Assembly (NCBI GenBank): GCA_047967505.1
Contig: CM106538.1
Length of the DNA stretch: 64,000 nt
Source of the DNA: Dipteris shenzhenensis
Lineage: Eukaryota
Strand: one strand, 5' to 3'
Shown: positions 2,300-44,567 of the stretch, in pieces
Numbering within the stretch: the first letter of the stretch is position 1
Layout of the letters: each line of letters begins with the position of its first letter
Made by a program: the position numbers and the translations under genes
Notes under the pieces: model-generated
Told to the model about the DNA's origin: nothing
The model's database searches: none
Seen by the model: only the letters and a program-made list of their open reading frames with translations

Positions 2300-4445
2300 T
2301 CATACACGTACTAACGAAATATGCATGTGGACTTATCTGTTGGTCCCTACTAGCACGACTACGTATGAAAAATGGTGCACGTACTAATGAAATACACATG
2401 TGGACATTTCTATTGGGGATGAAACTTTGCATGACTCTTAGGTCACCCTAGACATACATCCATGCAAGATTTAGTCTCCAATTGATTTGGTATGCACCAC
2501 GTGGAAGGTATAATGCGTGCATTTTTACAATCCCTACTAGCACGACTGCGGCAAAGCTATGGCGCACGTACTAATAAAATACACGTGTGGACTTATCTGT
2601 TGGTATGAAACTTCGCATGACTCTTAGGCCACCCTAGACATACATCCACGCGAGATTTGGTCTCAAACAGATTTGGTATGCTCCACGTGGAAGGTACAAT
2701 GTGTACATTTTTACAATCCCTACTAGCACGACTGTGGCAAAGCTATGGCGCATGTACTAATGAAATACGCATGTGGACTTAACTATTGGGGATGAAACTT
2801 CGCACGACTCTTAGGCCACCCTAGACATACATCCATGGAAGATTTGGTCTCGAACTGATTTGGTATGTGCCACGTGGAAGGTATAATGCGTACATTTTTA
2901 CAATCCCTACTAGCACAACTACGTATGAAAAATGGTGCACGTACTAACATAATATGCATGTGGACTTATCTATTGGAGATTAAACTTTGCACGGCTCTTA
3001 GGCTACCGTAGACGTACATCCACGCAAGATTTGATGTCCAACTGATTTGGTATGCACCACGTGGAAGGTATAATGCATACATTTTTACAATCCCTACTAG
3101 CACAACTACGTATGAAAAATGGCGCACGTACTAATGAAATATGCATGTGGGCTTATCTATTGGGGATGAAACTTCACATGGCTCTTAGACTACCCTAGAC
3201 GTACATCCACGCAAGATTTGGTGTCCAACCCTACTAAACCCTAAACCCTAAACCCTAAACCCTGTTGGGGATGAAACTTCACACGGCTCTTAGACTCCCT
3301 AGACGTACATCCATGCAAGATTTGGTGTCCAACTGATTTGGTATGCGCCATGTGGAAGGTATAATGCGTACATTTTTACAATCCCTACTAGCACGACTAA
3401 ACCCTAAACCCTAAACCCTGAACCCGGTTGGGGATGAAACTCCACACGGCTCTTAGGCTACCCTAGATGTAGATCCATGCAAGATTTGGTGTCCAATTGA
3501 TTTGGTATGTGCCACGAGGAAGGTATAATGCGTACATTTTTACAATCCCCAGTAGCACGACTAAACCCTAAACCCTAAACCCTAGACCCTAAACCCTGTT
3601 GGGGATGAAACTTCACATGGCTCTTAGGCTACCCTAGACATACATCCATGCAAATTTTGGTGTCCAATTGATTTGGTTTACACCACGTGGAAGGTATAAT
3701 GTGTACATTTGTATAATCCCTACTAGCACGACTAAACCCTAAACCCTAAACCCTATTGGGCATGAAACTTTGCACGGCTCTTAGGCTACCCTAGACATAC
3801 ATCCACGCAAGATTTGGTGTCCAATTGATTTGGTATGCGCCACATGGAAGGTATAATGCATACATTTTTACAATCCCTACTAGCACGACTAAACCCTAAA
3901 CCCTAAACCCTGTTGGGGATGAAACTTCACACGGCTCTCAGGCTACCCTAGACGTTCATCCACGCAATATTTGGTCTCCAACTGATTTGGTATTCACCAC
4001 GTGAAAGGTATAATGCATACATTTTTATAATCCGTACTAGCATGACTAAACCCTAAACCCTAAACCCTGTTGGGGATGAAACTTCACATGGCTCTTGGCT
4101 ACCCGAGACATACATCCATGCAAGATTTGGTCTCCAACTAATTTGGTATGCACCACATGGAAGGTCTAATGCGTACATTTTTGCAAGCACTCCCTACTTG
4201 TGATTGCATATGAAAAATGGCGCACGTACTAACCAAATATGCATGTGGACTTATCTGTTGGGGATTAAACTTTGCACGGCTCTTAGGCTACCCTAGACGT
4301 ACATCCATGCAAGATTTGGTCTCCAACTGATTTGGTATGTGCCACATGGAAGGTATAATGCATACATCCATGCAAGATTTGGTCTCCAACTGATTTCGTA
4401 TGTGCCACGTGGAAGGTATAATCCCTACTAGTGACTACGTATGAA
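2300..4445. repeat. Tandem array of ~12 units of a 187-bp monomer (157-171-bp variants carry telomeric repeats)
   Basis: The GAAACTT/TAAACTT anchor recurs at 2421, 2607, 2794, 2981, 3168, 3273, 3436, 3607, 3764, 3921, 4078 and 4266. Shared motifs include GGCTACCCTAGACATACATCC and CACGTGGAAGGTATAATG. Confidence 0.95.
3234..4068. repeat. Six short interstitial telomeric tracts (CCCTAAA)3-5 embedded in the array
   Basis: TAAACCC tracts at ~3234-3263, 3396-3425, 3561-3597, 3732-3754, 3889-3911 and 4046-4068, each followed by (T)GTTGGGGATGAAAC or a close variant. Confidence 0.95.
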
Positions 4446-7629: not shown

Positions 7630-8989
7630 TGTAACACACTCTTAGTAACCCTTGTATTTCTTTGCATTTATCAGTACTTTGAGGACCCTAGTAAGAAGAC
7701 TCATTATGATCTGTGTTTGTTAACTATACAGATTCTAACAAGGCTGTAGGTTTAAGAGATGGTATTGAGGAGAATCTCTATATTTTATTCCCCAAGATAA
7801 TACACGTGGTTGGGGCAAGTATTATTATACTTGATTAACTTATTTTCCAAAATAAGGAGAATTGTATTTTTTTAAATGCCTTTCTCGCTCTTTGGAAACT
7901 TTTCCACATGTGGTGTAAGGACCACATTGTCCACTTATGGCCCCTATACTAAGGACAGATAGTGGAGAGGTTTGGTTAATAAGATCTTCTTTGAATGCTT
8001 TACTGCCTTGGGTTTGCACTAGATATGGAGGAGATAGAAGGATATCTAATACATTACTTTGAACGATACACAAGCAAGGCGCATCTAGTATTTCTCGGAC
8101 TACACATTAAAAAAGAGAGCGTGTTAACACTACAGACCTTTTAAAGCGAGAACTTTGAGAAAATAATTAGGCCTTTTCAATATTATCTATTTTGGTTGGG
8201 CAATCCACCTCAACTAGTGGCCATTCCTATAGATCATCACTTGGTTCCCATGCCTGGGGAGAGAGGAGACCTTTGGACAATCATTTGCGTATGTGTTTTC
8301 CATGCGCTGATGCATTTAGAAGATCCAATTAGCCATACGCTTATGCATCTAACCACTCTAGTGTTGGGGTCTTTGCCATATGGCCAAGCAAAACAATAGA
8401 TGTTCTACATGGGTAGCACAATGTCTTAGTAGGGTGGGTTGCATGTGGGCAATCATCCTCGGATGATGCATCATTGGATAGACTTCATTCATCCCATGCT
8501 CAATTTAGGCTGGAAAGTAGAAAACGCTTTTCCAATTTCATTTGACCCCCAAGTAAATGGTGTGAATGAAGCCAAGTTACTACGCTTTGGGCCATGCTAT
8601 ACTAAGGATAGAAATAGAAGATACTTTTTTGTCATTATGTGAGCGTCAAGTGAGAGGATGTAGGTGGGCGCCAGGTGGGAAGGAACGAGTTATTTTGCTC
8701 AAGACATGAAAGAAAAAATCATTTTGCTAATATAAGGGAGAAACTCACATACCACATGACATTGAATATTGCTTGCTCTTTTATCCCAAGGATGATGAGG
8801 ACATGATTAGCTATGCTGGGATACATTTTTAGGATAATGCCCATGTGGTGTGGTGTTTTAGGGATAATGCCCATGTGTTTTATACAGCCTACTTACTCTA
8901 CCTAAATTATGAAACAACTCTTAACCAACTATATAATCTATGATATTCCACATAAAGATTGATAAACGCACACCGCTACCTAGTACTCC

Positions 8990-17660: not shown

Positions 17661-18432
17661 CGAATTAGAAAAAAAGAGAGCTCATTTTGGGGCCTTTTAG
17701 AAGAGAGAGAAAATAGGCTCTCAACCAATCAGGAGTGGGCCAACGTAACGTTGAAAATTCAACAAAAGAAGATGAAAATAAGAAAAAGAAATAGTACTAT
17801 ATGTTCGTAGAAGCATGTCACATTAATGAGGTGATCTGATTTGAATCTTTAAAAAATTTATATTATGTGCAGAATTTGGTGATTTTGACATCGCAGACGC
17901 GTCCGGAACGGCCCAAAACCCAAGAACGGCACTGGAAACGCTGGAATCGGACATCCGGAGGCCCGGAAACGGCCAAAAAAGGCCAAAAAACGCGATTTGC
18001 AGCAAAATGCGATTTGGCACTTTTGAAATTCGCAATTTGCAACAAAATGCGATTTGGCACTTTTGAAATTTCAAAAGTGCCAAATCGCATTTTGCTGCAA
18101 ATCGCGTTTTTCGGCCTTTTTTGGCCGTTTCCGGGCCTCCGGATGTCCGATTCCAGCGTTTCCAGTGCCGTTCTTGGGGTTTTGGGCCGTGCTTGGGGTT
18201 TTGGGCCGTTCCGGACGCGTCAGCGATGTCAGAATCACCAAATTCTGCACAGAAAAGTGTTGCTCTTATATGAACATTGAATGTAAAGCATGTGAAAGAA
18301 TATATTTATTCCTTTTCACACTGACATTTCTCATGCAAGTATCCATATTTTCTTGCTTTTGTAGAGAGAGAAAAGAGAAAATAGTGAATTTCTTACAGGG
18401 CCCCAAAATGAGTTCCCTTTTTTCCTAATTCG
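17661..18432. mobile_element. Foldback element copy 1 (~30-bp TIRs plus ~390-bp internal palindrome), in the Copia-B leader
   Basis: Termini ATTAGAAAAAAAGAGAGCTCATTTTGGGGCC ... GGCCCCAAAATGAGTTCCCTTTTTTCCTAAT. The internal inverted repeat spans 17866-18251 with a loop-less centre GAAA|TTTC at 18068/18069. A near-identical second copy is at 43091-43898. Confidence 0.9.
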
Positions 18433-18773
18433 GACTCTCTCGCACTCTCAAGAATCACAATGCCTTAGCGGAAGGCAAGGGAGCTCTGATACCATGACAG
18501 AATATGAAGAGGGGAGAGGAGAAGAGTGGAGATGAGGAGAGAGGGCACAGCTAGAGAGCACACCACAAATGACTAACTGTACACTAGTTTTAGTCGAAAA
18601 TGTAGAATATATACAAACCAATTTAGGGTTAGGGTTAGGGCATCTAACCCTTTTCTTTATAGCACTCTATAAGGTTACTGCTATGCACACATGATCACAT
18701 GATGTTGAGTGTGAAGTCTCAATAGCACCTTGAAATTTTCGTTCATATTTAAGGAGGTTTCTGCCTGAGGATT

Positions 18774-19674
18774 ATGACATTACAGAACACTGCAAAATAT
18801 TCTGTCACTGCCAAAAACACAGCTTTTGCCTCACACGGGCAGATCTGCAAAACTGACGAAAGTGGTATTTCACCACACAGTCACTTCCTAGTGATGATTT
18901 TGCATCAACAGGCAATAAGCATGATTCTGCAACTCCTAATATCTCTGCACACAGGCATACGATGCAATTTCTGCGGCAACTTTTCACCGACTAGCTGTGC
19001 AGTGGTCGCACAGCCAAAACAGGGCCTTTTTCTGAGTGCCTGCAAAGAACTTCCGCCTTCAAAACGGGCCCCGAAATGACCTCGAATCAGAAAAATAAAG
19101 TTACCAAGGGCTTCGCCTACTCCCGAGCATATAATGCCCTCTCGTCACACTGCGAAGGCGTCTCAATCTGAGACAGTGCACTCTTGCACTTCCGGTTGTG
19201 CTACCTGCAGAGATTTGCTCCCAAACTCGAAAAAGGAAAGCAACACTTGTCCTCTTACCAGGACACTGCGAACTTGGTTTGCTTTCTTGAGCTCCTTACC
19301 ACGAACAAGGCTCTGATACCATGTGAAGATAGTGGGAGAGAGGGAAGGAGTCTCACTTGTAGCTTTCTCACAAGCACAATGGGGGAATACACACAAAGGT
19401 GGAGGCTGAAAACAGTTTTCCTTTTCTTAGTTGTGAAAGCCAAAAGAACTCTAGTACAAAGAAAATAGAAGAACCCTATATGTGGGTCTCAAACCAAACT
19501 CAACTAACTAAGGTGGCTTAGTAACTGAGCCACAAACTAGAGTAGATAAGGATAGCTATCATCCAGCTATTATTCGTGGGTGGTGTACCAACCGCATCTC
19601 CAGCTAACAAGTCGGTGACATAAATACACAACGGTCACCCTGGCATATCACGAGTGGAGCTCGATATCTCAACA
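18774..19674 (-). mobile_element. Copia family A 5' fragment: LTR 19322-19674, PBS 19310-19321 and leader ending about at the gag start
   Basis: 353-bp TG...CA LTR matching 25412-25764, 53441-53793 and 58612-58964. The leader matches 24867-25399. Confidence 0.92.
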
Positions 19675-20480
19675 CTGGTGATGATACTGCACATCCTATT
19701 GTGCAGATTGGTAAAATTCCTTTGTCTATGCAGGATGGGAAAAAGAAATACCTGTCTAATGTATTTCATGTCCCGAATATCACCAAGAACCTGGTTTCTA
19801 TTGGTCAAATGGTTGAGTAGGGCTTGCAGGTCAGATTTAATCCTCATGGATGCTTTGTTGAGGATATGAAAAATAACGGTTGCTTGATAGCAAAAGGAAA
19901 GAAGAAGGACAGGATGTTTACATTGGATGCGGACATGCCTGAATTGAGTGCAGCAATGTTTGCACATGGGACCGGTGTAGTTGTAGATATTGATATCTAG
20001 CATAAACGCATTGGTCATGTTAATGTACGACTCAAATCAATGCAGGCCTAAAATATTGTTGCATGATTGCCTAAATTCAAGGTTGCAGAAATGCATAAGA
20101 TATGTGAAGCCTATCAATTTGGAAAACAGGCAAGGAAACCATTTCCTAGACATGTTCAAGAGAGTAAGAAGCCATTGGAATTAATCCACTCTGATGTGTT
20201 GACTACTAAAGCTGCATCTATTGGAGGCTGTCATTATTTTGTCACTTTTATTGATGACTATAGCAGAAAAGTTTGGGTGTATTTTACGAAAAAGAAAAGT
20301 GAAGTGTTTGGACATTTCAAAGCTTTTAAAGCTATGGTTGAAAAAGAAACAGGCCTGCAAATAAAATGCCTAAGGTCAGATGGAGTGGGAGAGTACCTCT
20401 CAAATGAGTTTGCAAGGTTCTTGTAGGAGCATGGCATAAAGCAACAATATTCATGCAATCATACCCCACAGCAAAATGGA
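19675..20480 (+). mobile_element. Inverted internal Copia-A fragment (post-protease to integrase core)
   Basis: Reverse-complement match to ~22950-23760. Encodes TGDDTAHPIVQIGK...ELIHSDV...FIDDYSRK...CLRSDG with stops. Confidence 0.92.
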
Positions 20481-23400
20481 CAAGTCGGTGACATAAATGC
20501 ACAACAGTCACCCTGGCATATGGAGCTCGATATCTCAACACTCCCCCTCGAGCTCAATCCCAAATCTTGCACACCAAGCAGGTCTCTGAACTTGCGCAGC
20601 TTCTCTGCGCCCAATGCTTTCGTGAATATGTCAGCTACCTGATCCTCTGTGCTGACATAAACTAGATCAATAAGACCTAGTAAAACCTTCTCCTGCACAT
20701 AGTGATAATGAACCTCAATGTGCTTTGTTCTAGCATGAAAGATTGGGTTCTTTGCCAAGTGTATACTGCTCATGTTGTCACAATAAATGACAACCGGCCC
20801 ATCTGTAGACTGATGCATATCATAGAGTAGCTTATGCAACCAAGCTACCTCACATGCAGCCATTACTGCACCCCTGTACTCAGCCTCTGTGCTCGACAAG
20901 GCAACTGTAGGCTGTTTCTTGCTGCTCCAAGTGACTGCAGCACTCCCAAAAGAGAACACATATCCACTGGTAGATGTCTATCTGAAATGCTACCAGCCCA
21001 ATCAGCATCAGTGTATCCATGCAACTGTATCTGAAACCCAGCCTCATAAAATAGTCCATACTGCAATGTGGACTTCATATACCTGAGTATGCGTCTAGTC
21101 GCATCCAAATGCGGTTTCCTTGGAGCCTGCATAAACTAACTTACCAACCCAACAGCATAGCTCAAATCTAGCCTGGTAATAGTCATGTAAATCAAACTTC
21201 CTACTATGCGTCTGTACGTAGTAGGGTCTTCCAGAAGCTCACCTGCATCTGTGCTCAGCTTCACATTCTGCTCCAAAGGAACTGAAATAGGCTTACAGCC
21301 TGTCATCCCATATTTGGACAGCGTGTCCAATCCATACTGCCTCTGCAAGAGCTGTATCATCCCACTTGGTGATCTAATCACCTCAATGCCCAAGAAATAA
21401 CGCAGCTTTCCCAAGTCCTCCATCTCAAACTTCTGCCTCAATAGCATTTTCACATGAAGGATATCTTCATCACTATCACCTGTGATGATCAAATCATCAA
21501 CATAAATGACCAGCAGCATAATCCCTTTCTCTGTTTTTCTCACATAGAGTGAGAAATCTGCCTTGGATATCTGAAAGCCAATAGTGACAAGATACTGTCC
21601 TATCTTGTCAGACCATGCTCTAGGTGCTTGCTTCAAGCCATACAAGGCTTTCTTCAACCTGCAAACAAACTCAGGATGAATAGCATGAACATAACCTGCT
21701 GGCTGCTCCATAAAGACCTCTTCTTGCAAATCACCATGCAAGAAGGCATTCTTTACATCCATCTGATGTAAAGACCATCCCTTTGATGCAGCCATAGCAA
21801 TGGCTGCTCTTACGGTTGCCATCCTTGCAACCGGGCTGAAAGTTTCTTCATAATCAATGCCATATGTCTGTGCATACCCCTTGACAACTAATCTTGCCTT
21901 GTATCTATTCACAGAACCATCTGCATTATGCTTGATCTTATAAACCCACTTACAGCCAATTGCATTCTTGCCTTTAGGCAAAGGCACCAATTCCCACGTA
22001 GCATTAGCATCCAAGGCATCCATTTCTTCATCCATGGCTTTCTCCCATTTTTCATTTCCCATGGCTTCCTCAAAAGAAGTGGGCTCTGGTTCCTGTATCA
22101 CTTTGACCATATAGGCATAGTGAATGGCTGTAAATCCATCATATTTCAGCCTATCCACAGGATACCTAACCCTGGTAGACCTGCGCAAAATAGGCTCACT
22201 TCCAGGTGCTCTCAAAACATCCCTGGTCTTCCTTACTCCAGGTGTAACAACAGAAGGAATACCCAACTCATCATCAATGCTCTGTTCTGAGCCACTGGAT
22301 TCACCATCCACACAAGAGTGACCTGCATTCAGATCAAACATGGGCTGATCTACCTTCTCTTTTCCTTTTCGTAATACCTGCGTACCACTCTCCGCATTGC
22401 TTTGAGGGGATTCTCCTGATCTCAATCTGCCTGTCCATGGCGAAGTATGTGAACCACTGGTAGAGGACACTCCAGGTCCACTGATATTTTGTGATTGCTG
22501 CTGTGCATTCTGTGCAGCATTACCATTTTGTGCATCTACATCAATCATCATATTTACTAGTTTATACCAGCTGCTCATCTCATCAAAAACAACATCTCTG
22601 CTCACTGTGAACTTACGTGTAGAAGGGTTATAGCATCTATGCCCTTTCTGCTCCAGAGAATAACCAATAAAGACGCACTTCTCAGCTTTTGGATCCAACT
22701 TGGACCTCAACTCATCTGGCACATGGACATAGGCAATGCAACCAAAAATCTTCAAATGAGAAATATCTGGTTTCCTACTAGTATACATCTCCTCTGGCGT
22801 CATGCCATGTATTGCTGCAGTGGGAGTGTTGTTCATTATATAGACTGTTGTAGCAACTGCTTCAGCCCAATAATAATCTGGTAGATCTTTTTCATTTAGC
22901 ATAGCCCGAGATACCTCTCCAATATGCCTCTTTTTTCTTTCTGCAATTCCATTTTGCTGTGGGGTATGACTGCATGAATATTGCTGCTTTATACCATGCT
23001 CCTGCAAGAACCTTGCAAACTCATTTGAGAGGTACTCTCCCCCTCCATCTGACCTTAGGCATTTTATTTGCACAGGCCTGTTTCTTTTTCAACCATAGCT
23101 TTGAAAGCTTTGAAGTGCCCAAACACTTCACTTTTCTTTTTCATAAAATACACCCACAGTTTTCTGCTGAAGTCATCAATAAATGTGACAAAATAGTGAC
23201 AGCCTCCAATAGATGCAGCTTTTGTAGTCCACACATCAGAGTGGATTAATTCCAATGGTTTTTTACTCTCTTGAACATGCCTAGGAAAAGGTTTCCTTGC
23301 CTGTTTCCCAAATTGACAGGCTTCACAAACCTTGTGCATTTCTACAACCTTGAATTTAGGCAATCCTGCAACAATATTTTGGGCTTGCATTGATTTAAGT

Positions 23401-25764
23401 CGCTGTATATTAACATGACCAATGCGTTTGTGCCAGATATCAATATCTGCAAATACACTGGTCCCATGTGCAAACATTGCTGCACTCAATTCAGGCATGT
23501 CCACATCCAACGTAAACATCCTGCCCTTCTTCTTTCCTTTTGCTATCAAGCGACCATTATTTTTCATATCCTCAACAAAGCATCCATGAGGATTAAATCT
23601 AACCTGCAAGCCCTGCTCAACCATTTGACCAACAGAAACTAGGCTCTTGGTGATGTTTGGGACATGAAATACATCGGACAGGTATTTCTTTTTCCCATCC
23701 TGCATAGACAAAGGAATTTTACCAATCTGCACAATAGGATGTGCAGTATCATCACCAGTCTCCATAAATCCTGGCTTTTCCATTTTCCGTGCATCCTACA
23801 TCCATTTTGCATGACCTATCATGTGGTTTGATGCACCTGAGTCAACATACCACACATCATTTCATTCTTTTGCACTTGTCACAGAGTTGGTCATATGTTG
23901 CACCATAAATAGATGCTCATTTCTGTCATCACCTTGTCTACTAGAAGATGCATATTTGCCTTGCTGCAATTTTCCATTCATAATGTCATTCTGCTTTTTG
24001 TAGCAGTCCTTAGCCATATGACCCATTTTGCCACAATAGTAGCATTCAACATTGCTGTTTGCATTTTGGCTTCTCTGCCATCCACCACGGCCTCTTTGGC
24101 TCCCCCTGCCTCTAGAGTTACCACGTCCTCGTGCATAGGACTGGTTTTCTTGCGTTTGCTGCATATTCTGATTTCTACCACGGCCTGCAGATCGGCCTCC
24201 TCTACCTCTGCCTCTACCTCTTCCAGCATTTGAGTAGAAGACAGTTTCTTTTGAAGTTCCTGCTGAAGAAGATGCACCCCCATTTCTCTGCTCTTCAGAA
24301 ATTAGAAGAGCAATCAGCTCCTCAAAATCAGGAAATTTTTCACGGACGGCAATGGATGTCCGGAACTGTGCATAATCCTTTCCTAGACCATTCAAGGTCA
24401 CATAAACCAAATCATCATCATCCACTGGCGACCCAATGGAAGCAAGTGCATCTGCAATTTTCTTCACTTTCATGTGGTAGTCATTTATGCTCAAATTTTC
24501 TCTCTGCACATTGTGCAACTCCTGTTTGAGTTGCATTTTCCTGGCTTGCGTATTTGTGCTATACATTTTTGGCAAAGTATCCCATGCCTCCTTTGGCGTA
24601 TTTGCATCCTGAATATGCACAATCATGGAGTCCGAAATACTGATAGACAACAAGTACATAACTTTCCTGGCTCTCTCATGCCATCCTTTGAATGCCTGCA
24701 TTTCCTATTGACTGGGAGCATTAGGAAGAACAGGTTCTTCTTCATTTCCTGTAATGAATTCCCAATAGCCTTTTCCCATCAAGAAATTCGTCATTCTAAA
24801 CTTCCATGCCTGGAAGTTGTTCGTGTCAAGCTTTTCAGTGACAATCTGTGAAAGAGAATCAGATGCCATTACAGAACACTGCAAAATATTGTCACTGTAA
24901 AAAAAACAACTCTTGCCACACACAGGCAGATCTGCAAAACTGACGAAAGTGGTATTTCACCACATAGTCACTTCCTAGTGACGATTTTGCATCAACAGGC
25001 AACAGGCATGAATTTGTAACTCCCAATATCTCTGCACACAGGCATACGATGCAATTTCTGCGGCACCTTTCCACCGACTAGCCGCGTAGTGGTCGCACAG
25101 CCAAAAACAGGGCCTTTTTCTGAGTGCCTGCGAAGAACTTCCGCCATCAAAACGGGCCCCGAAACGGCCTCAAATCAGAAAAATAAAGTCACTTAGGGCT
25201 TTGCCCTACCCCGCAGCATATACTGCGCTCTCGCCACACCGCGAAGGGCGTCTCAATCTGAAACAGTGCACTCCTGCACTTCTGGCTGTGCTACCTGCAG
25301 AGATTTGCTCCCAAACTCGAAATAGGAAAGCAACACTGGTCCTCTTACCAGGACACCACGAACTTGGCTTGCTTTCTTGAGCTCCTTACCACGAACAAGG
25401 CTCTGATACCATGTGAAGATTGTGGGAGAGAGGGAAGGAGTCTCACTTGCGGCTTTCTCACATAAACAATTGGGGGAATACACACAAAGGTGGAGGCTGA
25501 AAACAGTTTTCCTCTTCTTAGTTGTGAAAGCCAAAAGAACTCAAGTACAAAGAAATAGAAGAACCCTATATGTGGGTCTCAAACCAAACTCAACTAACTA
25601 AGGTGGCATACTAACTGAGCCACGAACTAGTGTAGATAAAGATAGCTGTCATCTAGCTATTATTCGTGGGCGGTGTACCAACCGCATCTCCAGCTAACAA
25701 GTCGGTGACATAAATGCACAACAGTCACCCTAGCATATCAAGAGTGGAGCTCGATATCTCAACA
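20481..25764 (-). mobile_element. Near-complete Ty1/Copia family A element (3' LTR truncated to 20481-20540)
   Basis: 5' LTR 25412-25764, PBS 25400-25411, PPT (CTCGAGGGGGAG) at 20541-20552, and gag-PR-INT-RT-RNaseH order. Confidence 0.95.
20490..24869 (-). pseudogene. Copia gag-pol polyprotein with stops and frameshifts
   Basis: MASDSLSQIVTEKLD (ATG 24869), CYYCGKMGHMAKDC, WYVDSGASNH, IHSDVW, RYKARLVVKG, QMDVKNAFLHG, IYVDDL, YTDADWAG, VALSSTEAEY, TKHIEVHYH. Confidence 0.93.
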
Positions 25765-34300: not shown

Positions 34301-35867
34301 TTGTTGAAATATGGGAATGAGTTCCAAAATTGGAATTGGACACCTAAGACGCAAATCCTTTGTGGATACTTTTAGTCTGCATCCATGCAACTCTCCTCGT
34401 TGAAGGAGGGAGATTGACTTGAGAGAGAACCATCGGGGCTGGTAGATTGATAATGACAACGACTATGGTAAGCCCATAAGATGCTAAGGTTGCATGCAGG
34501 CACATGGGGACGAAGGTGACAATGCAACTTTATAAAACGAAGCTGCGCACTTTTCTTTGTTAAAAGCAAAACATGCAAACCTGTTGCGGTACTACTTTGT
34601 TCGCTAATAGAACGTTCAGACGAGAGCAGAGAAATCACTTTGCAGCGTGCCGCTCACACTGCAATGCGGCAATACAATCCGACATACAGTTCTCTCTGAG
34701 TTGAGAACTTGAGATCGTGCACAAAAACAGCAGAGGTACGAGCCGGGCAAATGCAAGTTGCGATAGGGCTAGAGTCTACAGGGGTGGCAAATGTGCGAAA
34801 CAGGCTAGTAATAAAAAAGCACGCGGCTGTGCTTCCCGATTCCCGAGTAGTCCTGAAGCCAGATGGAAGAAAGCTCAGCAGCAGAACAGGGAGCACGTTG
34901 CAGGTGACAGGCTTTGAGGAGCAAAGAGGTTCTCAGGACCCAAGGTCACCCAACAACAACATGGTGGTAACTAATCGGTTCCAAGCTGGATATAGGAAAG
35001 GATCGGGTCCCACGAATCCCCATCATTATTTTAATCATAGTTAAGGCGGCTAACTGGGCCCGAGTGCGAGCTAGCTGGATATTGGGTACAGCAGCCAGCT
35101 AGAATAATCAAATGTACTATTTTTTGTGCGCGACCCGTTCACAACAGGATTGACAAGAAAGCTGGAGCGGCTGAGCTGGCGCTCGCGGGATCGAGGTTAG
35201 GTCTAACTTGAGGTAAGGGCGGCCGGGAGAGGGGGGGAAAGACGGCAAGGGGGATCCGGGGAAGGGAATCTCGAGCCGGCGGGCAGACCGGCGGGCAGAC
35301 ACGGGGCAGCGGGCCGTGGGCCGTGCCGCGCGGGAAGATGCTGCGGGGAACCGGAGAGCGACGGTCAACAGCGATAGCTTTCGGGGAACCGGCTGCAGCC
35401 GGTAGCGCTAAGGGTGGCGGAGATTTAAAGGTGGAAATTTGAATTTCTACACAGTGAAAACCAGGTTCACGAGTCTTCTGCTACTGTCGTGGTTAACATT
35501 AATTGCTATACACAACTGGATTGAGGACTGAGCAAACGCGGCCCTTAATCAATATCCGACAGAAACTTTGCGTTGCTTTTCTTCTTGCCTGCCAGTTTTT
35601 TCCCCGTCTTCTTCTTCGTTCTCCGTCTTGACCTTCGCCATCTCGCAGCTGGAATTCCGTGTCGCACAAGCTCATCCTTGTGTGAAACTTTCTTCGCACC
35701 GACGTCGTCTTGCGACCTCATCGTCTTCATCGCTGCTGCTGCTTCCTTCGCTTATCGGATCCTCGGCTCGGTGATTTGATTCTCTTGTATTTACTTGTAG
35801 ACTATAATTCTCTATCGTCTCTCCCAATCCTCCTTTGCTTCCCACGGTTTCTTGTTGCAGTACCACC

Positions 35868-38742
35868 ATGAGACTCTCTTACATCTCCATCCCTTCTGTT
35901 ATGATCCACTCCATCCCTTCTTCTGCTCTCAATGGATTGCTCGCTTCCCCTAAGAAACCCTGCCAGAAACACAGGCTTTTCAATAAGGTTGCCAGCCCGA
36001 ATTTTTGGCTGAGCCTCATTGGCTTGTCCCTTTTCGTCAGCTTGCTGAAGCTTATCCTGGTATGGCATCCTTCGGAAGATTTTAGCCCTTGCGAACCTGT
36101 GCTTTCCCTGTCGAACGCAGCTAACTTCCAGGTTCATGAGGCTACATTGGAAATTCCTGTTAGCAAGAACGAGCGACTGTCACGCATGCAGTCTGTAAAC
36201 CCGTTCCCGCCACATTCTTTACAGCCGAACATGTTGGAGACAGAGAAAGAGTTCTGGAAACAGCCAGACAGTCAAGGGTACATGCCATGCCTCAACTTCA
36301 GCGCGCGCTACAAAGACGAATCGAAAAAGGTTAGGCAACAGAAGCACAAGTATCTCCTCGTCATCGTCTCAGGGGGTTTGAATCAGCAACGCAATCAAAT
36401 AGTGGATGCTGTGGTGATCGCTCGCATCCTCCAGGCTGCTCTGGTCGTTCCAGTATTGCAAGTTAACCAGATATGGAAGGACGAAAGGTATGCAGTTCAA
36501 TCGGTTCAAAAATCTAGCGTTGCCAAAAACGCATGGCATGCTGTTCCGTTGTTCCACTGTTCCTTCGTGTTTTCTGATTGCTCTCGTTTGGCTCGTCTAC
36601 AGTGAGTTCTCGGATATTTTTGATGCTGAACACTTCAAGCGAATTTTAAAGGATGATGTGCTCGTAGTGTCTTCTCTTCCCTCGACTCACATTATGACAA
36701 GGCCCGTGCAAGAGAAGAGCACGCCTCTGTATGCAAGTCCTCAGTGGTACCGCAGCCATTACCAAAAGCGGGTGAGTGCTATCCTCTTGTTGAGTGTAAC
36801 GACTGGAGCCTGGAAGGCTTACGATGTGAAATAAACCGTCCATAAGCTAGGATTGGCCCACGATTGATTTGCACTTGGCATTGAATTTCCTGTGGGAATA
36901 CGCTCGATGTCACGTGTCATAGTCATCGCTACGGGAGGACAAAATTTTTTGAGTTCTGTAAAGATCGTCATTCTAAGTGCTTTGTTTAAGACGTGGATGA
37001 ATTCCTAATGAGCAGTTGAACCGGGAAGGAGTTTTGCTGTTACGCGGACTGGATGCTAGGCTCTCGAAGGACCTTCCTCAGGACCTTCAGAAGTTGCGAT
37101 GCAAGGTATGCTCACGCGTCTGCCTGGCCGAAAGTTCTTTGCGTTTTAAGTCGACTGTTGCTGATGACTGTAAAGCAGTCGCGGCAGAGACACTCGGAAT
37201 AACTTTAGTCAGTTGCCTCCATTCTTTTGCGACTCTTCGGGGCTTAACTTTTTAAGTAGTTGCCTAAGCGATTCTTATAGGGCTGTTTCGAACTTCTTTA
37301 TTGTCTAGGTCGCCTTTCATGCGCTTCGCTTTACAGCACCTATCATGGAGATAGGAAGCCGGCTTGCACGGAGGATGTACCAGACAGGTCCATACGTAGC
37401 TTTGCATTTGCGACTGGAGAAAGATGTTTGGGTTAGGACTGGATGTCTCCCTGGGCTGGGTCCTAAGTTTGATGAAGAAGTTCAGCGGGAAAGGGCAGCT
37501 AAGCCAAACCTTCTCACCGCGCGTTCCAACATGGCCCCTACTGAACGCAAACTCGCAGGCCTTTGTCCTCTCAATGCAGCTGAAGTTGCAAGGTAGGGGG
37601 ATGAGAGGCTTCTGTTCGTTTCCTGTTTCTGAGATGAGAAATGCAAATCCATAGATACATTTGATATAATGTGCCTTTTTTAAATCGCTTGTCCTATATT
37701 TTGGCTTCTCCTGTCGCCTTGTCATACCGAAGCTGACAGTGAACAGCGCATTTTGATGTTTAAATCGAGGTTGTCCGCATCAAATGATAAGATCAAATAG
37801 TTGAGCCTTGAGCGGGTTCGTTCACATTTTCAGTGTCAAAAGTCCTTCACATTGCACAAGGATTGAATTAAATCATGTGGCCACTGGCCGGTTTCCCGTT
37901 TAAAATATAAACCTCTTGCATCAAGGAGTTTTCGTTGTTGGTGCGTATAGCGGGAAAAGTCAAGCTACAGAAAAATGTCCAATCATTTATCTTTGCATTC
38001 CACAAGGCGGCGAGGAAAATGCTTTTAGGAAATGTCTACGTCGATTGCTTGAAAGTTGACGAAAAATTCTTCCAAACTAAATTCTGACGATGATGGTCTA
38101 CTTGTGTAGGCTTCTGAGAGGTCTTGGAGCGCCAAATGGAACGCGGATCTTTTGGGCAGGAGGGGAGCCTTTGGGAGGAACTCTTGCTCTAAAACCTTTA
38201 GTTGAAGAGTTCGGCGGTCTTTACAATAAAAATGGCCTTGCTCTCCCCGGGGAATTGGAGCCTTTTGCAAACAAGGCGTCTAGCTTGGCTGCCATCGATT
38301 ATATTATATGTCTAAACAGCGATATATTCATGCCATCTCACGGCGGCAATATGGGTCGTGCACTGCAGGTCCGTTTTATCTTTTTTGCCGACGCCTCGCG
38401 TACTCTTTGTTCGAATAACATTATGTCTATTATGTCTAGCTTGTGTTTAAATCTGTCTTTGTTGGTCTGAATCTCGTTCTGCCCATATTTATGCAGGGTC
38501 ATAGAGCATACGCAGGACACCGGAAGCACATAGCTCCAAATAAGAGAGAGATGCTTCCTTATTTTATGAATGCTTCCTTGCCTAGTGGACCTGAGTTCGA
38601 TTTGATCATAAGGAACCTACATAACGAATCTCTGGGTCAACCAAATCTCCGGACTGAAAAGAAAGGACGAGATGTGTTAGCTTATCCTGCGCCTGAATGC
38701 ATGTGTGCTAAATCTCCTGCTGCGGATCGGTTACCAAGTTAG
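35868..38742 (+). CDS. Plant O-fucosyltransferase-family glycosyltransferase (GT106/DUF246-type, type II membrane protein), 555 aa
   Basis: Exons 35868-36487, 36603-36771, 37016-37105, 37309-37592, 38110-38368 and 38497-38742 have GT-AG introns and total 1668 nt in an open frame. Features: N-terminal TM helix (FWLSLIGLSLFVSLLKLIL), VSGGLNQQRNQIVDAVVIAR, SEFSDIFD, LQKLRCKVAFHALRF, YVALHLRLEKD, GLCPL, LAAIDY, PSHGGNM, GHRAY. A probable 5'-UTR intron lies at 35771-35860. Confidence 0.95.
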
Positions 38743-40502: not shown

Positions 40503-42642
40503 CAAGGAGTCATAAAAAATGACAACAAAATCATGCAAATGACAAGACAACTCTTTTTTTGAAAAAAAATTCAAAAAAGCATCTTTTTTAAAACTATGGA
40601 GATAAAATACACAATTTTATGTCAATCATCTTTTAAAAATAGCTACTTTTATGAAAAAAACATTACTTACATCTCACTCTAAAACCTAAAAATGTTTCAT
40701 ATTATGAATTGGAAAGAGTGTTTTAACTTATAATTTGGAAAACATGACAAACTACAAAGGGAAAGTAACTATTCTATTAAACTAGAAAAGTCCTTGTACC
40801 TTTTGCTTTAATATATTAATTATTTTTCAGTCTTAATTGTCTAACAATTTATTACTCAAAACCATATACAAGAATTTCTATAGCTTGTAATTTAAACATT
40901 TCTACACATTGATGAATTTCAGATATCTTTTTTTAAATTTTTAAAAGCATCTTTGAGTCAACTTTCTTTTGAGCACTTTTGTTAAAAGAGTTTTATATAA
41001 ATTCCTTAAATAAAAGTAACAACATTGCCCAAGCATTGTCCTTAAGTATAAATTTTGTACCAATATATGTTTTTAAACTCCATGTTGTATGTAATGTACT
41101 ATCCATAAACTTATAGGAATGCATTAAAAAAAAAAAAAACTTTCTTTATTTACAATGATAATCCAATGCTTGAATTTAAGAATATTTAAATATAAGCATA
41201 GGTAATAGTTATATGGAGTTCATGGCCATAAAAGAGGTTTGTTGAATGTAAAGATGTTTTTAGATTTAAATATTAACTAAAGATGTTTATCATCTTGCAT
41301 ATTTTAGATCAAATCGTTAAATTTCGATCTAAATAGTGACGATTTTAAGTTTATCAATTTACTTTATTTCAATTAAAGTCGTGATGTGAACTTGAATTCT
41401 GAAATTCGAAATTGAGTGATGGATTGAAATTTTCATCCAAAAAAAGAAAAAAAAATAAAGTGTTCAAAATGTGTGAAATATCACTTTCATCCAATGAAAC
41501 TTTCAGTGCTAAAATTTTCGTTGATGGGAAAAAATTTGTTCAAAAAATCCATCGACGAAAATATTTTCATTCATCAAAAAATTTGCGTTGACAATGGAAA
41601 CATTTTCCATAATTAAAATCAGTATTTCGTAATCCAAGTGGATTCTGGAATCCCAAATTCCATCGACGAAAGAAGATCGAAAAAATTTTCATCGATGGAT
41701 TTTTTTTAACGGACAAATTTTTTTCTGTTGATGGTTTTTTTGGATGAATTTTTTCCCATCCGTAGGAAATTTTGGCATTGAAAGTTTCATTGGATGAAAG
41801 TGATATTTCACACATTTTGAAATGCTTTGTTTTTCTCTTTTTTTGGATGAAAATTTCACTCCCTCGATGGAAATTTCAATTTGTCATCCAATTTCGGATT
41901 TCAAAATCCAAGTTCACATCATAATTTTCAAACAACAATTGTTCTTGTTTTCATGACTTAGAATTTATTTTTTATAAAATAGAAGTTATATTTTTCAATG
42001 GCTTAGATCAAATAAAGTAAACTCAAAACTTACTACCATCTAAATATTGACCATTAGGTGGAAACTGAACCATTTGGTCCAATTGACAATAGATTGTATT
42101 ACTTTCTTATCTAAACTTTGACCATTAGATAGTTTAGTTACTATCTAATTCTAGAGACATTTTAAGTTTCCATAAACCTCCTTGATGAGCATGGGAGCCT
42201 ATATACTTATTTATCTTAACATAAAAAACATGCTCTAATTCAAATATTGGAATGAACTACTTTGATTGTGATGAAATTCTTTAATTTATTGTAGAAAATA
42301 AAGCATGTTTCGGTAGTTAAAAGTAAAGGATCTATTATACATTTCATAGTCATGCATGAATTACTAGTAACTCTTAAAATATTAGATCATGTCATTGACT
42401 TGGTTTTAAAAAACTTTCTGTTTGACATGAAAAGCAAAAAAAATCGCATCTTTAAACTAGCAATATGTACATTAAAAAAAAAAGTTCAAAAGTATACTTA
42501 GTTTACAAAATTAATGAAATTAGTTCTCTTTAATGTCACCAAAAGATTGTAAAATTGATTAAAATTTAGGAGTAGCAACAAATCTAGATAACTTGTTGCA
42601 AGTGACAACTCAAGACTCGTTGTCGTTTTTCATGACTCGCTG
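40503..42642. mobile_element. Old non-autonomous hAT-like element
   Basis: Imperfect TIR CAAGGAGTCATAAAAAATGACAAC vs the reverse complement of the right end, CAGCGAGTCATGAAAAACGACAAC. The 8-bp flanks TTCAAAAA / TTCAAAGC match 6/8. Confidence 0.5.
41382..41921. mobile_element. Foldback MITE with ~250-bp imperfect arms
   Basis: TGATGTGAACTTG...CAAGTTCACATCA, with a 39-bp perfect arm match TTCAAAATGTGTGAAATATCACTTTCATCCAATGAAACT vs ~41783-41821. Internal CATCGACGAA-type motifs. Confidence 0.8.
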
Positions 42643-43023: not shown

Positions 43024-44567
43024 CACATACTATAGCCATCTGATTTAAAGTAGCCATGTTATGCTTTATTAGTCACTAAAGTATGGCATTCATTAGAAAA
43101 AAAGGGAGCTCATTTTGGGGCCTTTTAGAAGAGAGAAAATAGGCTCTCAACCAATCAGGAGTGGGCCAACGTAACGTTGAAAATTCAACAAAAGAAGATG
43201 AAAATAAGAAAAAGAAATAGTACTATATGTTCGTAGAAGCATGTCACATTAATGAGGTGATCTAATTTGAATCTTTAAAAAATTTATTTTTTGTGCAGAA
43301 TTTGGTGATTCTGACACCGCAGACGCGTCCGGAACGGCCCAAAACCCCAAAAACGGCACTGGAAACGCTGGAATCGGACATTCGGGGGCCCGAAAACGGC
43401 CAAAAAAGGTCGAAAAGTGAGATTTGCAGCAAAACGCGATTTGGCACCTTTTGAGCACTGGAAACGATGGAATCGGACATCCGGAGGCCCGGAAACGGCC
43501 AAAAAAGGCCAAAAAGTGAGATTTGCAGCAAAACGCGAACCCAAATCGCGTTTTGCTGCAAATCTCTGGGTTCGCGTTTTGCTGCACATCTCACTTTTCG
43601 ACCTTTTTTAGCCGTTTCCGAGCCTCCGGATGTCCGATTCCAGCGTTTCCAGTGCCGTTTTTGGGGTTTTGGGCCATTCCGAACGCGTCTGCGGTGTCAG
43701 AATCACCAAATTCTGCACAGAAAAGTGTTGTTCTTATATGAATATTGAATGTAAAGCATGTGAAAGAATATATTTATTCCTTTTCACACTAACATTTCTC
43801 ATGCAAGTATCCATATTTTCTTGCTTTTGTAGAGAGAGAAAAGAGAAAATAGTGAATTTCTTACAGGGCCCCAAAATGAGCTCCCTTTTTTCCTAATGAT
43901 ATGATTCGTTGCTTGTGCTTTGTCCTTAATGCATATTGTTATGGTTGTTGCTTGTGACATTGTGAGGGGGGTCATTGGAATTGTAATGTAAGGCTTTATG
44001 CCTACAATGTCGGTCTATAACACTTAATAGTATTGTTTGCAAATAGTTTGAATACCACTTTCCCAAAGAGTTCTGAATGACAACTCAAGATACAAGGATA
44101 TCCCTTCCTATAGGTGGAGATGGAGAGATACCAATAGGTTCACTTATCCCTCCCTCTATCTGTTGGTTCTCCTTCGAGCTATGGTTCACCATGCACAACA
44201 CATACTATAGCCATCTGATTTAAAGTAGCCATGTTATGCTTTGTTAGTCACTAAAGTATGGCATTATATGATTCGTTGCTTGTGCTTTGTCCTTAATGCA
44301 TATTGTTATGGTTGTTGCTTGTGACATTGTGAGGGGGGTCATTGGAATTGTAATGTAAGGCTTTATGCCTACAATGTCGGTCTATAACACTTAATAGTAT
44401 TGTTTGCAAATAGTTTGAATACCACTTTCCCAAATAGTTGTGAATGACAACTCAAGATACAAGGATATCCCTTCCTATAGGTGGAGATGGAGAGATACCA
44501 ATAGGTTCACTTGTCCCTCCCTCTATTTGTTGGTTCTCCTTCGAGCTATGGTTCACCATATGCACAA
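43024..44567. repeat. ~370-bp tandem duplication; first copy interrupted by the foldback element
   Basis: 43024-43090 plus 43899-44197 matches 44198-44567 almost exactly. Confidence 0.95.
43091..43898. mobile_element. Foldback element copy 2 (808 bp)
   Basis: CATTAGAAAAAAAGGGAGCTCATTTTGGGGCC ... GGCCCCAAAATGAGCTCCCTTTTTTCCTAATG, with an internal palindrome at 43292-43719. Boundaries are defined by the empty paralogous site at 44265/44266. Confidence 0.92.

Follow-up and report, generated by a model that had tools for sequence, protein, structure and literature searches.

A high-copy foldback element of a fern with mostly fixed CATTAG..CTAATG ends and one junction without a target-site duplication

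The length of a target-site duplication (TSD) reflects how a transposase cuts its target, and it is the main key for classing non-autonomous elements. A foldback element of the fern Dipteris shenzhenensis, found twice in a window of 64,000 nucleotides (the whole stretch of DNA analysed; contig CM106538.1, assembly GCA_047967505.1), raises the question of how an element bounded by terminal inverted repeats (TIRs) can come to lie in a target with nothing duplicated. The first-pass annotation had proposed a hairpin-resolving or copy-back integration that makes copy-specific symmetric ends or, as another option, TAG..CTA termini with an AT TSD. The explanation preferred here, held tentatively and at somewhat short of an even chance, is that a non-autonomous TIR family, present in many copies and bearing CA..TG ends like those of CACTA/CMCT elements, inserts with a stagger of 2 bp and has lost its duplication at copy 2. 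This and the other probabilities given below are judgements from two sites and were not computed.

The features of copy 2 and of the duplication around it are as follows.

43091–43898, no strand: copy 2, a non-autonomous foldback/TIR element of 808 bp with ends CATTAG..CTAATG, whose boundary agrees with the loose-end piles of related sequencing runs
43091–43127, plus strand: left TIR of copy 2, 37 bp, with three mismatches to the right TIR (positions 7, 33 and 35)
43862–43898, minus strand: right TIR of copy 2
43287–43439, plus strand: left inner inverted arm, GC-rich, 94% complementary to the right arm
43572–43724, minus strand: right inner inverted arm, pairing with the left inner arm
43440–43571, no strand: copy-specific centre, comprising part of a 99-bp tandem duplication (43356–43538) and a small hairpin
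43030–43090, plus strand: left part of tandem-duplication unit 1, forming the left flank of copy 2 (outer boundary approximate)
43899–44198, plus strand: right part of unit 1, forming the right flank
44199–44567, plus strand: unit 2, with the empty site at 44265/44266 (boundaries approximate)

Copy 2 lies inside unit 1 of a young 367-bp tandem duplication, and unit 2 carries its flanks with nothing duplicated. Among all intervals tried (left end 43080–43099, right end 43885–43909, TSD 0–9), only 43091–43898 with a TSD of 0 recreates the paralog at 44265/44266, so the junction of copy 2 is free of microhomology. The flanking triplets ATT and ATA are both present in the paralog, and the gap-free alignment of the two units has 5 differences over 353 sites. 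Copy 2 is a real element at a real TSD-less junction, and the filled and empty sites had been correctly placed in the first-pass annotation. Its description of the element as inserting without a TSD holds for copy 2 only, since a family cannot be characterised from a single empty site resolved to the base.

The substitution counts (5/353 versus 7/370, Fisher p = 0.77) do not tell whether the insertion or the duplication came first, and the paralog may therefore have lost the element secondarily. It is very improbable, in our judgement, that the paralog lost the element through a host process, or is an assembly or haplotype artefact, and is uninformative on integration. Such a loss would suit the very stable foldback (DNA fold of -281.5 kcal/mol, z = -31.8, with 0 of 20 shuffles equally stable), and the locus is known from the assembly alone. 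Against it, the units differ at those five sites, unlike a collapsed read artefact, the microhomology-free junction falls at the family boundary, and the filled flanks would still have no TSD. Perfect excisions were found in 8 of 94 cases in rice (PMC4423477), and the mismatch between the flanks of copy 2 would not be accounted for even by such an excision. Local duplicates cover about 9% of the window, so the insertion of a foldback into one of them is unremarkable.

Copies 1 and 2 are the sole copies within the window. Copy 1 interrupts the leader of a Copia-type LTR element, 52 bp from its primer-binding site.

17663–18430, no strand: copy 1, 768 bp, with variant ends AATTAG..CTAATT and CG on both sides (a 2-bp direct repeat)
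18483–18494, minus strand: primer-binding site of the interrupted Copia-type LTR element, presumably for initiator tRNA-Met; the adjoining LTR is repetitive in contigs of related runs

The sequence CGA-ATTAG..CTAAT-TCG at 17661–18432 reads as the first-pass annotation gave it. Its terminal base is A/T where the family has C/G, and CG stands on each side; since CG equals its reverse complement, a TSD made of these two letters resembles extended inverted ends. The extra symmetry of copy 1 thus reads as a variant A/T end base followed by a self-complementary CG that may be taken as a 2-bp TSD, with a chance of 0.07–0.09 for such a direct repeat. The first-pass annotation had overlooked this simplest reading, in which the family termini of copy 1 are bordered by a direct repeat of 2 bp.

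The usual ends of the family were read from related sequencing runs. In 4 of the 24 listed runs, contigs from related organisms or environmental samples were placed on the copy 1 region (122–1968 contigs per run), with depth peaking at the TIRs and falling to very low values at the copy 1 centre; in the remaining 20 listed runs only 0.11–0.20 of words were found, and these runs were left out of the evidence. Left loose ends pile before position 17664 (124 contigs in run X1, 28 in X2 and 11 in X12) and right loose ends behind 18429 (107 in X1, 42 in X2 and 52 in X8). The consensus base beside the break is C in three of three left piles and G in three of three right piles among those listed. When a free background column was simulated with the base composition of the window itself, C led in just 2–31% of simulations per pile and the usual leader would be T. 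Agreement within the piles (0.36–0.46) is consistent with one or two fixed columns and not with three or more. The piles rest on 24 of 515 loose-end rows and are not independent, as contigs are able to fit either TIR; they contain only contigs unlike copy 1 at the terminal base, so that A/T-ended copies are invisible there. One X1 contig carries G at the terminal position, showing that this base is not invariant, and together with the A of copy 1 this makes the terminal C absent from two of three individually visible ends. The breaks at the same two positions and the C/G consensus in all six listed piles indicate that the family ends are mostly fixed; the usual terminus is CATTAG..CTAATG, as in copy 2, and is not regenerated at each insertion. 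The flank consensus in the related runs is heterogeneous. Separately, 33 X1 contigs match the element over no more than its final ~54 bp on the right (18376–18429) and then continue into another interior, with one such contig in X12, which points to subfamilies with common ends and different middles.

Both copies share one anatomy, comprising 37-bp TIRs, unique subterminal DNA of about 160 and 135 bp, GC-rich inner arms and differing centres. The inner arms (17863–18256 and 43287–43724) were compared over 127 columns, counting as concerted a difference in which both arms of one copy share a state against both arms of the other; three concerted differences and zero family-wide left/right asymmetries were found. 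At two of the three concerted sites the related runs mostly show the state of copy 2, suggesting that the lineage of copy 1 is the derived one. The TIR mismatches at positions 7, 33 and 35 are the same asymmetries in copy 1 and copy 2, so that extending concerted change to the terminal base goes a step beyond what the arms display. The centres between the inner arms hold copy-specific palindromes and duplications. Over the central hairpin of copy 2 (43490–43620), nine sub-threshold miRNA-precursor matches were returned by Rfam, the best with 43 bits against a cutoff of 73; these are read as generic hairpin matches, and the hairpin is a possible, putative small-RNA source.

These data bear directly on the proposal that the ends are written anew at each insertion by hairpin resolution or copy-back, in the manner of P-nucleotides. 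Copies 1 and 2 do differ symmetrically at the terminal base, and the concerted inner-arm changes indicate that foldback copying acts on the family. The predominance of C/G outside ATTAG/CTAAT in six of six listed piles, which a free column would seldom give, counters copy-specific ends, and at copy 2 the outer C and G do not pair with the T and A of the flanks beside them, so that P-nucleotides are excluded there. The proposal is largely refuted and is left with a very small residual probability.

Flank symmetry is present and yet much less improbable than it looks, since the symmetry past the family terminus amounts to two bases at copy 1 (chance 0.06–0.07) and one base at copy 2 (0.22–0.26). 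Testing of 144 boundary pairs per copy gave no direct repeat longer than 4 bp in either copy at any pair, and a 2-bp AT repeat with TAG..CTA ends is one of only two readings common to both copies. TAG..CTA are also the termini of Academ elements. Three other boundary readings were tried and rejected: a TA TSD with G..C ends would presuppose a fixed target of 8 bp, and the paralog would have to have lost 8 bp, an AATT TSD with AG..CT ends applies to copy 1 only, and a 3-bp TCG TSD at copy 1 would require two separate end defects.

The AT repeat at a shared TAG..CTA boundary makes a second explanation conceivable, in which the element has TAG..CTA termini and an AT TSD, prefers targets of the form N|AT|N' with C..G outermost as in ATon/ISL2EU-like elements, and is absent from the paralog by way of an excision footprint or a 4-base deletion. 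The variable base before ATTAG (C, A or G) would then be a target preference, and the dating is compatible with a duplication after the insertion. ATons are TIR elements inserted at AT with rare aberrant empty sites (PMC3422177), and the ISL2EU target is A|AT|T, as copy 1 would have (PMC4482050). This option fits the filled sites; at the empty site, the expected four bases are missing from the paralog and a separate symmetric 4-bp loss is needed, which must halt exactly at the family-wide boundary on both sides and without microhomology. The predicted stem runs on past the boundary, so a hairpin bypass would not stop there. Aberrant empty sites make up less than 1% for ATons (PMC3422177), and ISL2EU TIRs usually begin with GG and are described as known only from animals (PMC4482050). 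This explanation is considered unlikely.

A third explanation takes copy 2 at face value, with fixed CATTAG..CTAATG ends inserted at a blunt cut of low specificity for the target, and with the CG/CG of copy 1 arising by chance; the junctions would then be T|A at copy 2 and G|C at copy 1. No extra event is needed at copy 2, the interval with zero microhomology matches the family boundary, which the related runs mark independently, and the paralog is gap-free over its 353 aligned sites. TIR elements with blunt insertion are known from Spy (PMC4122938), and Harbinger-related elements yield TSDs of 0, 2 or 3 bp (PMC12730594). On the other side, the basis is a single site, where the duplication may also have followed the insertion, and neither the target nor the GGANNNNG termini of Spy are matched. 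At copy 1, the 2-bp direct repeat would have to be a coincidence (probability 0.09 at a blunt site), and the variant terminal base would be left without an explanation. Searches of the full-text literature listed no such TSD-less family from plants, so that the prior is lower, and we regard the explanation as a close rival of the preferred one, at rather less than an even chance.

On the preferred reading, the element would be a large MITE- or foldback-type derivative of a cut-and-paste transposon in the fern, on which a DDE transposase most like those of the CACTA/EnSpm–CMCT clade would act in trans. The transposase would cut at the C/G ends and insert them into a target opened with a stagger of only 2 bp. 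The resulting 2-bp TSD, CG, would be retained at copy 1, and at copy 2 the two duplicated bases would have been lost on one side in gap repair. The A/T end of copy 1 would be a variant of its lineage, symmetric in the manner of the three concerted arm differences, and would originate probably from intra-element foldback copying and not from the integration reaction.

The C/G consensus next to the break in the listed piles, with the agreement given above, and the exact 2-bp direct repeat at the family termini of copy 1 argue for this reading, and the inner arms, with their three concerted differences and no asymmetry, are in line with it. CA..TG termini and TSDs of 2–5 bp are common to CMCT lineages (PMC12730594), CMC-EnSpm elements are annotated in a fern genome (PMC6890710), and no TSD was identified for 3 of the 122 somatic insertions resolved in Arabidopsis (PMC12312487). 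One X2 contig crosses the Copia leader without the element, which confirms an insertion there. This site, too diverged to be read base by base, has 20 letters against the 22 predicted with a TSD or 24 with blunt joining, weakly favouring the TSD.

Several points stand against the preferred reading. The sole base-resolved empty site is without a duplication while the element ends are intact, so an aberrant event is needed at exactly copy 2. The terminal motif is CATTA and not CACTA/G, the terminal C is missing in two of the three individually visible ends, and TIR positions 7, 33 and 35 are not homogenised, which makes a concerted change of the terminal base in the TIRs an extrapolation. The subterminal regions contain no 9- or 10-mer recurring three times, unlike the subTIRs of plant CACTA elements; the 3-bp TSD of those elements is found in neither copy at symmetric termini; and no transposase is linked to the element.

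The surrounding DNA is that of a plant, with abundant LTR retrotransposons. An exon of an O-fucosyltransferase family gene at 35808–36605 has its best match in Ceratopteris (47% identity), and many of the 120 listed matches of a Gypsy-type reverse transcriptase are from Adiantum, the top match being from elsewhere; together these matches suggest a fern-like host. Other repeats were observed along the window. An internal Copia piece (22948–23759) is copied in inverted orientation over 807 bp at 19674–20480, between an LTR and a repeat of the last ~70 bp of that LTR, and its junctions share short sequence, resembling a template switch. A second AT-rich foldback at about 41300–42010 is older and unrelated, with arms 75–92% complementary, and a satellite at 2344–4422 consists of 187-bp and 157-bp units, the latter bearing short telomere-like CTAAACC arrays. 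A lone CATTA with an A-run at 8105–8125 is similar to an end of the foldback element and has no inverted partner within the window, and for the other CATTA/CACTA-type ends in the window no convincing partner was found.

The element appears to be non-coding, no coding capacity having been found in either copy. Pfam searches of 19 of the 24 open reading frames of at least 150 aa in the window returned only retrotransposon and O-fucosyltransferase domains and one sub-cutoff ferrochelatase match, and the 160-aa frame of copy 1 gave no Pfam match, a best Atlas value of 0.75 and none of 203 longer candidates at E <= 0.01. Exact element patterns had 0 matches in viral contigs and 0 in metagenome contigs. 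Shorter patterns gave 2, 4 and at least 119 matches, with flanks taken for 80 of the last set; at each of 125 such loci the alignment to the element ended within 36 nt, and among 121 matches the best inverted partner did not exceed 13/16, so that all were dismissed as chance. Neither a transposase-bearing partner (in viral or metagenome contigs or among the matching loci) nor a third copy with both flanks (in viral or metagenome contigs) was found. A fern family with CATTAG..CTAATG ends was not found in the full-text literature, Repbase and most subscription papers lying outside this scope; no such family is described in the accessible portions of PMC12973397, PMC12550479, PMC12868710, PMC4455052 and PMC6890710.

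What follows for biology depends on the reading. If the 2-bp reading is right, the family would be a fern CMCT-like lineage with non-canonical CATTA ends, useful for annotation and unsurprising. Should the family instead be a fern high-copy TIR group with CACTA-like ends, blunt TSD-less integration without a fixed target and an uncharacterised transposase, which is plausible at rather less than even chance, plants would have their own counterpart of Spy, with another target rule; Spy is the described TSD-less exception among TIR/DDE elements and requires AAA|TTT. A TSD-less, target-relaxed fern family would, if true, point to a novel geometry of target cutting and perhaps to a tool for insertion without scars. 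Since the smallest TSD allowed in runs of MITE pipelines is 2 bp (PMC12550479), such a family, if real, would reveal a blind spot of annotation.

Among known systems, plant MITEs and foldbacks such as Galileo, FB and FARE/MULE share with this element a short, non-coding, high-copy, TIR-bounded form and a variable palindromic interior. Foldbacks of the Galileo, FB and FARE/MULE types have TSDs of 7–11 bp, in contrast to the two copies, where no direct repeat exceeds 4 bp. For MULEs the TSD is given as 9 bp (PMC4423477). With lengths of 768 and 808 bp, TIR boundaries, no coding content and high copy number, the element has the features of a MITE-like non-autonomous TIR element. Replitrons, which are abundant in non-seed plants, are mostly TSD-less and have short direct terminal repeats and one insertion orientation (bioRxiv 10.1101/2022.12.15.520654). 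Within the HUH group of Replitrons and Helitrons, the resemblance lies in this frequent lack of a TSD in Replitrons; the symmetric 37-bp termini here are inverted and not direct repeats.

ATon of Aedes and ISL2EU resemble the element in being non-autonomous and in having AT beside both TIRs, when the boundaries are drawn at TAG..CTA, in two of two copies, and the TSD of ATon is likewise ambiguous (PMC3422177). They differ in that the empty paralog here lacks the four predicted bases and the outer base is mostly C/G; both groups are described from animals. Spy, of the PHIS superfamily, is likewise a TIR element with nothing duplicated at a paralogous empty site (one base-resolved site here). 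It inserts in AAA|TTT, has GGANNNNG termini and is reported from invertebrates (PMC4122938), in contrast to the ATT|ATA and TCG|CGG junctions and CATTAG ends here, and the element is not Spy.

Plant CACTA elements have the terminal motif CACT(A/G) and a 3-bp TSD (PMC4423477, Table 1), as well as subterminal arrays of 10–20-bp direct and inverted repeats (PMC8978399). Here the motif is CATTA in copy 2 and the family consensus and AATTA in copy 1, the flanking triplets are ATT/ATA at copy 2 and TCG/TCG at copy 1 only with asymmetric ends, and in the subterminal regions of copy 2 no 9- or 10-mer reaches three occurrences. As all three features fail, the element is not a plant CACTA element by definition. 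It differs from CACTA and CMCT elements together in the third base, T, in the missing TSD of copy 2 and in the absence of a linked transposase, that of CMCT being a DDE enzyme with C(2)C and H(3-4)H motifs. What it has in common with CACTA/EnSpm and CMCT elements is the CA..TG termini of copy 2 and six of six listed piles, copy 1 being the exception. The 2-bp repeat, in one of two copies and with the chance given above, lies inside the 2–5 bp TSD range of the CMCT clade. CATTA, with an A-run next to it, is one base off CACTA and one base off the CATCA of PlavakaB, whose ends are CATCA..TGATG and whose TSDs are 2–3 bp (PMC12730594).
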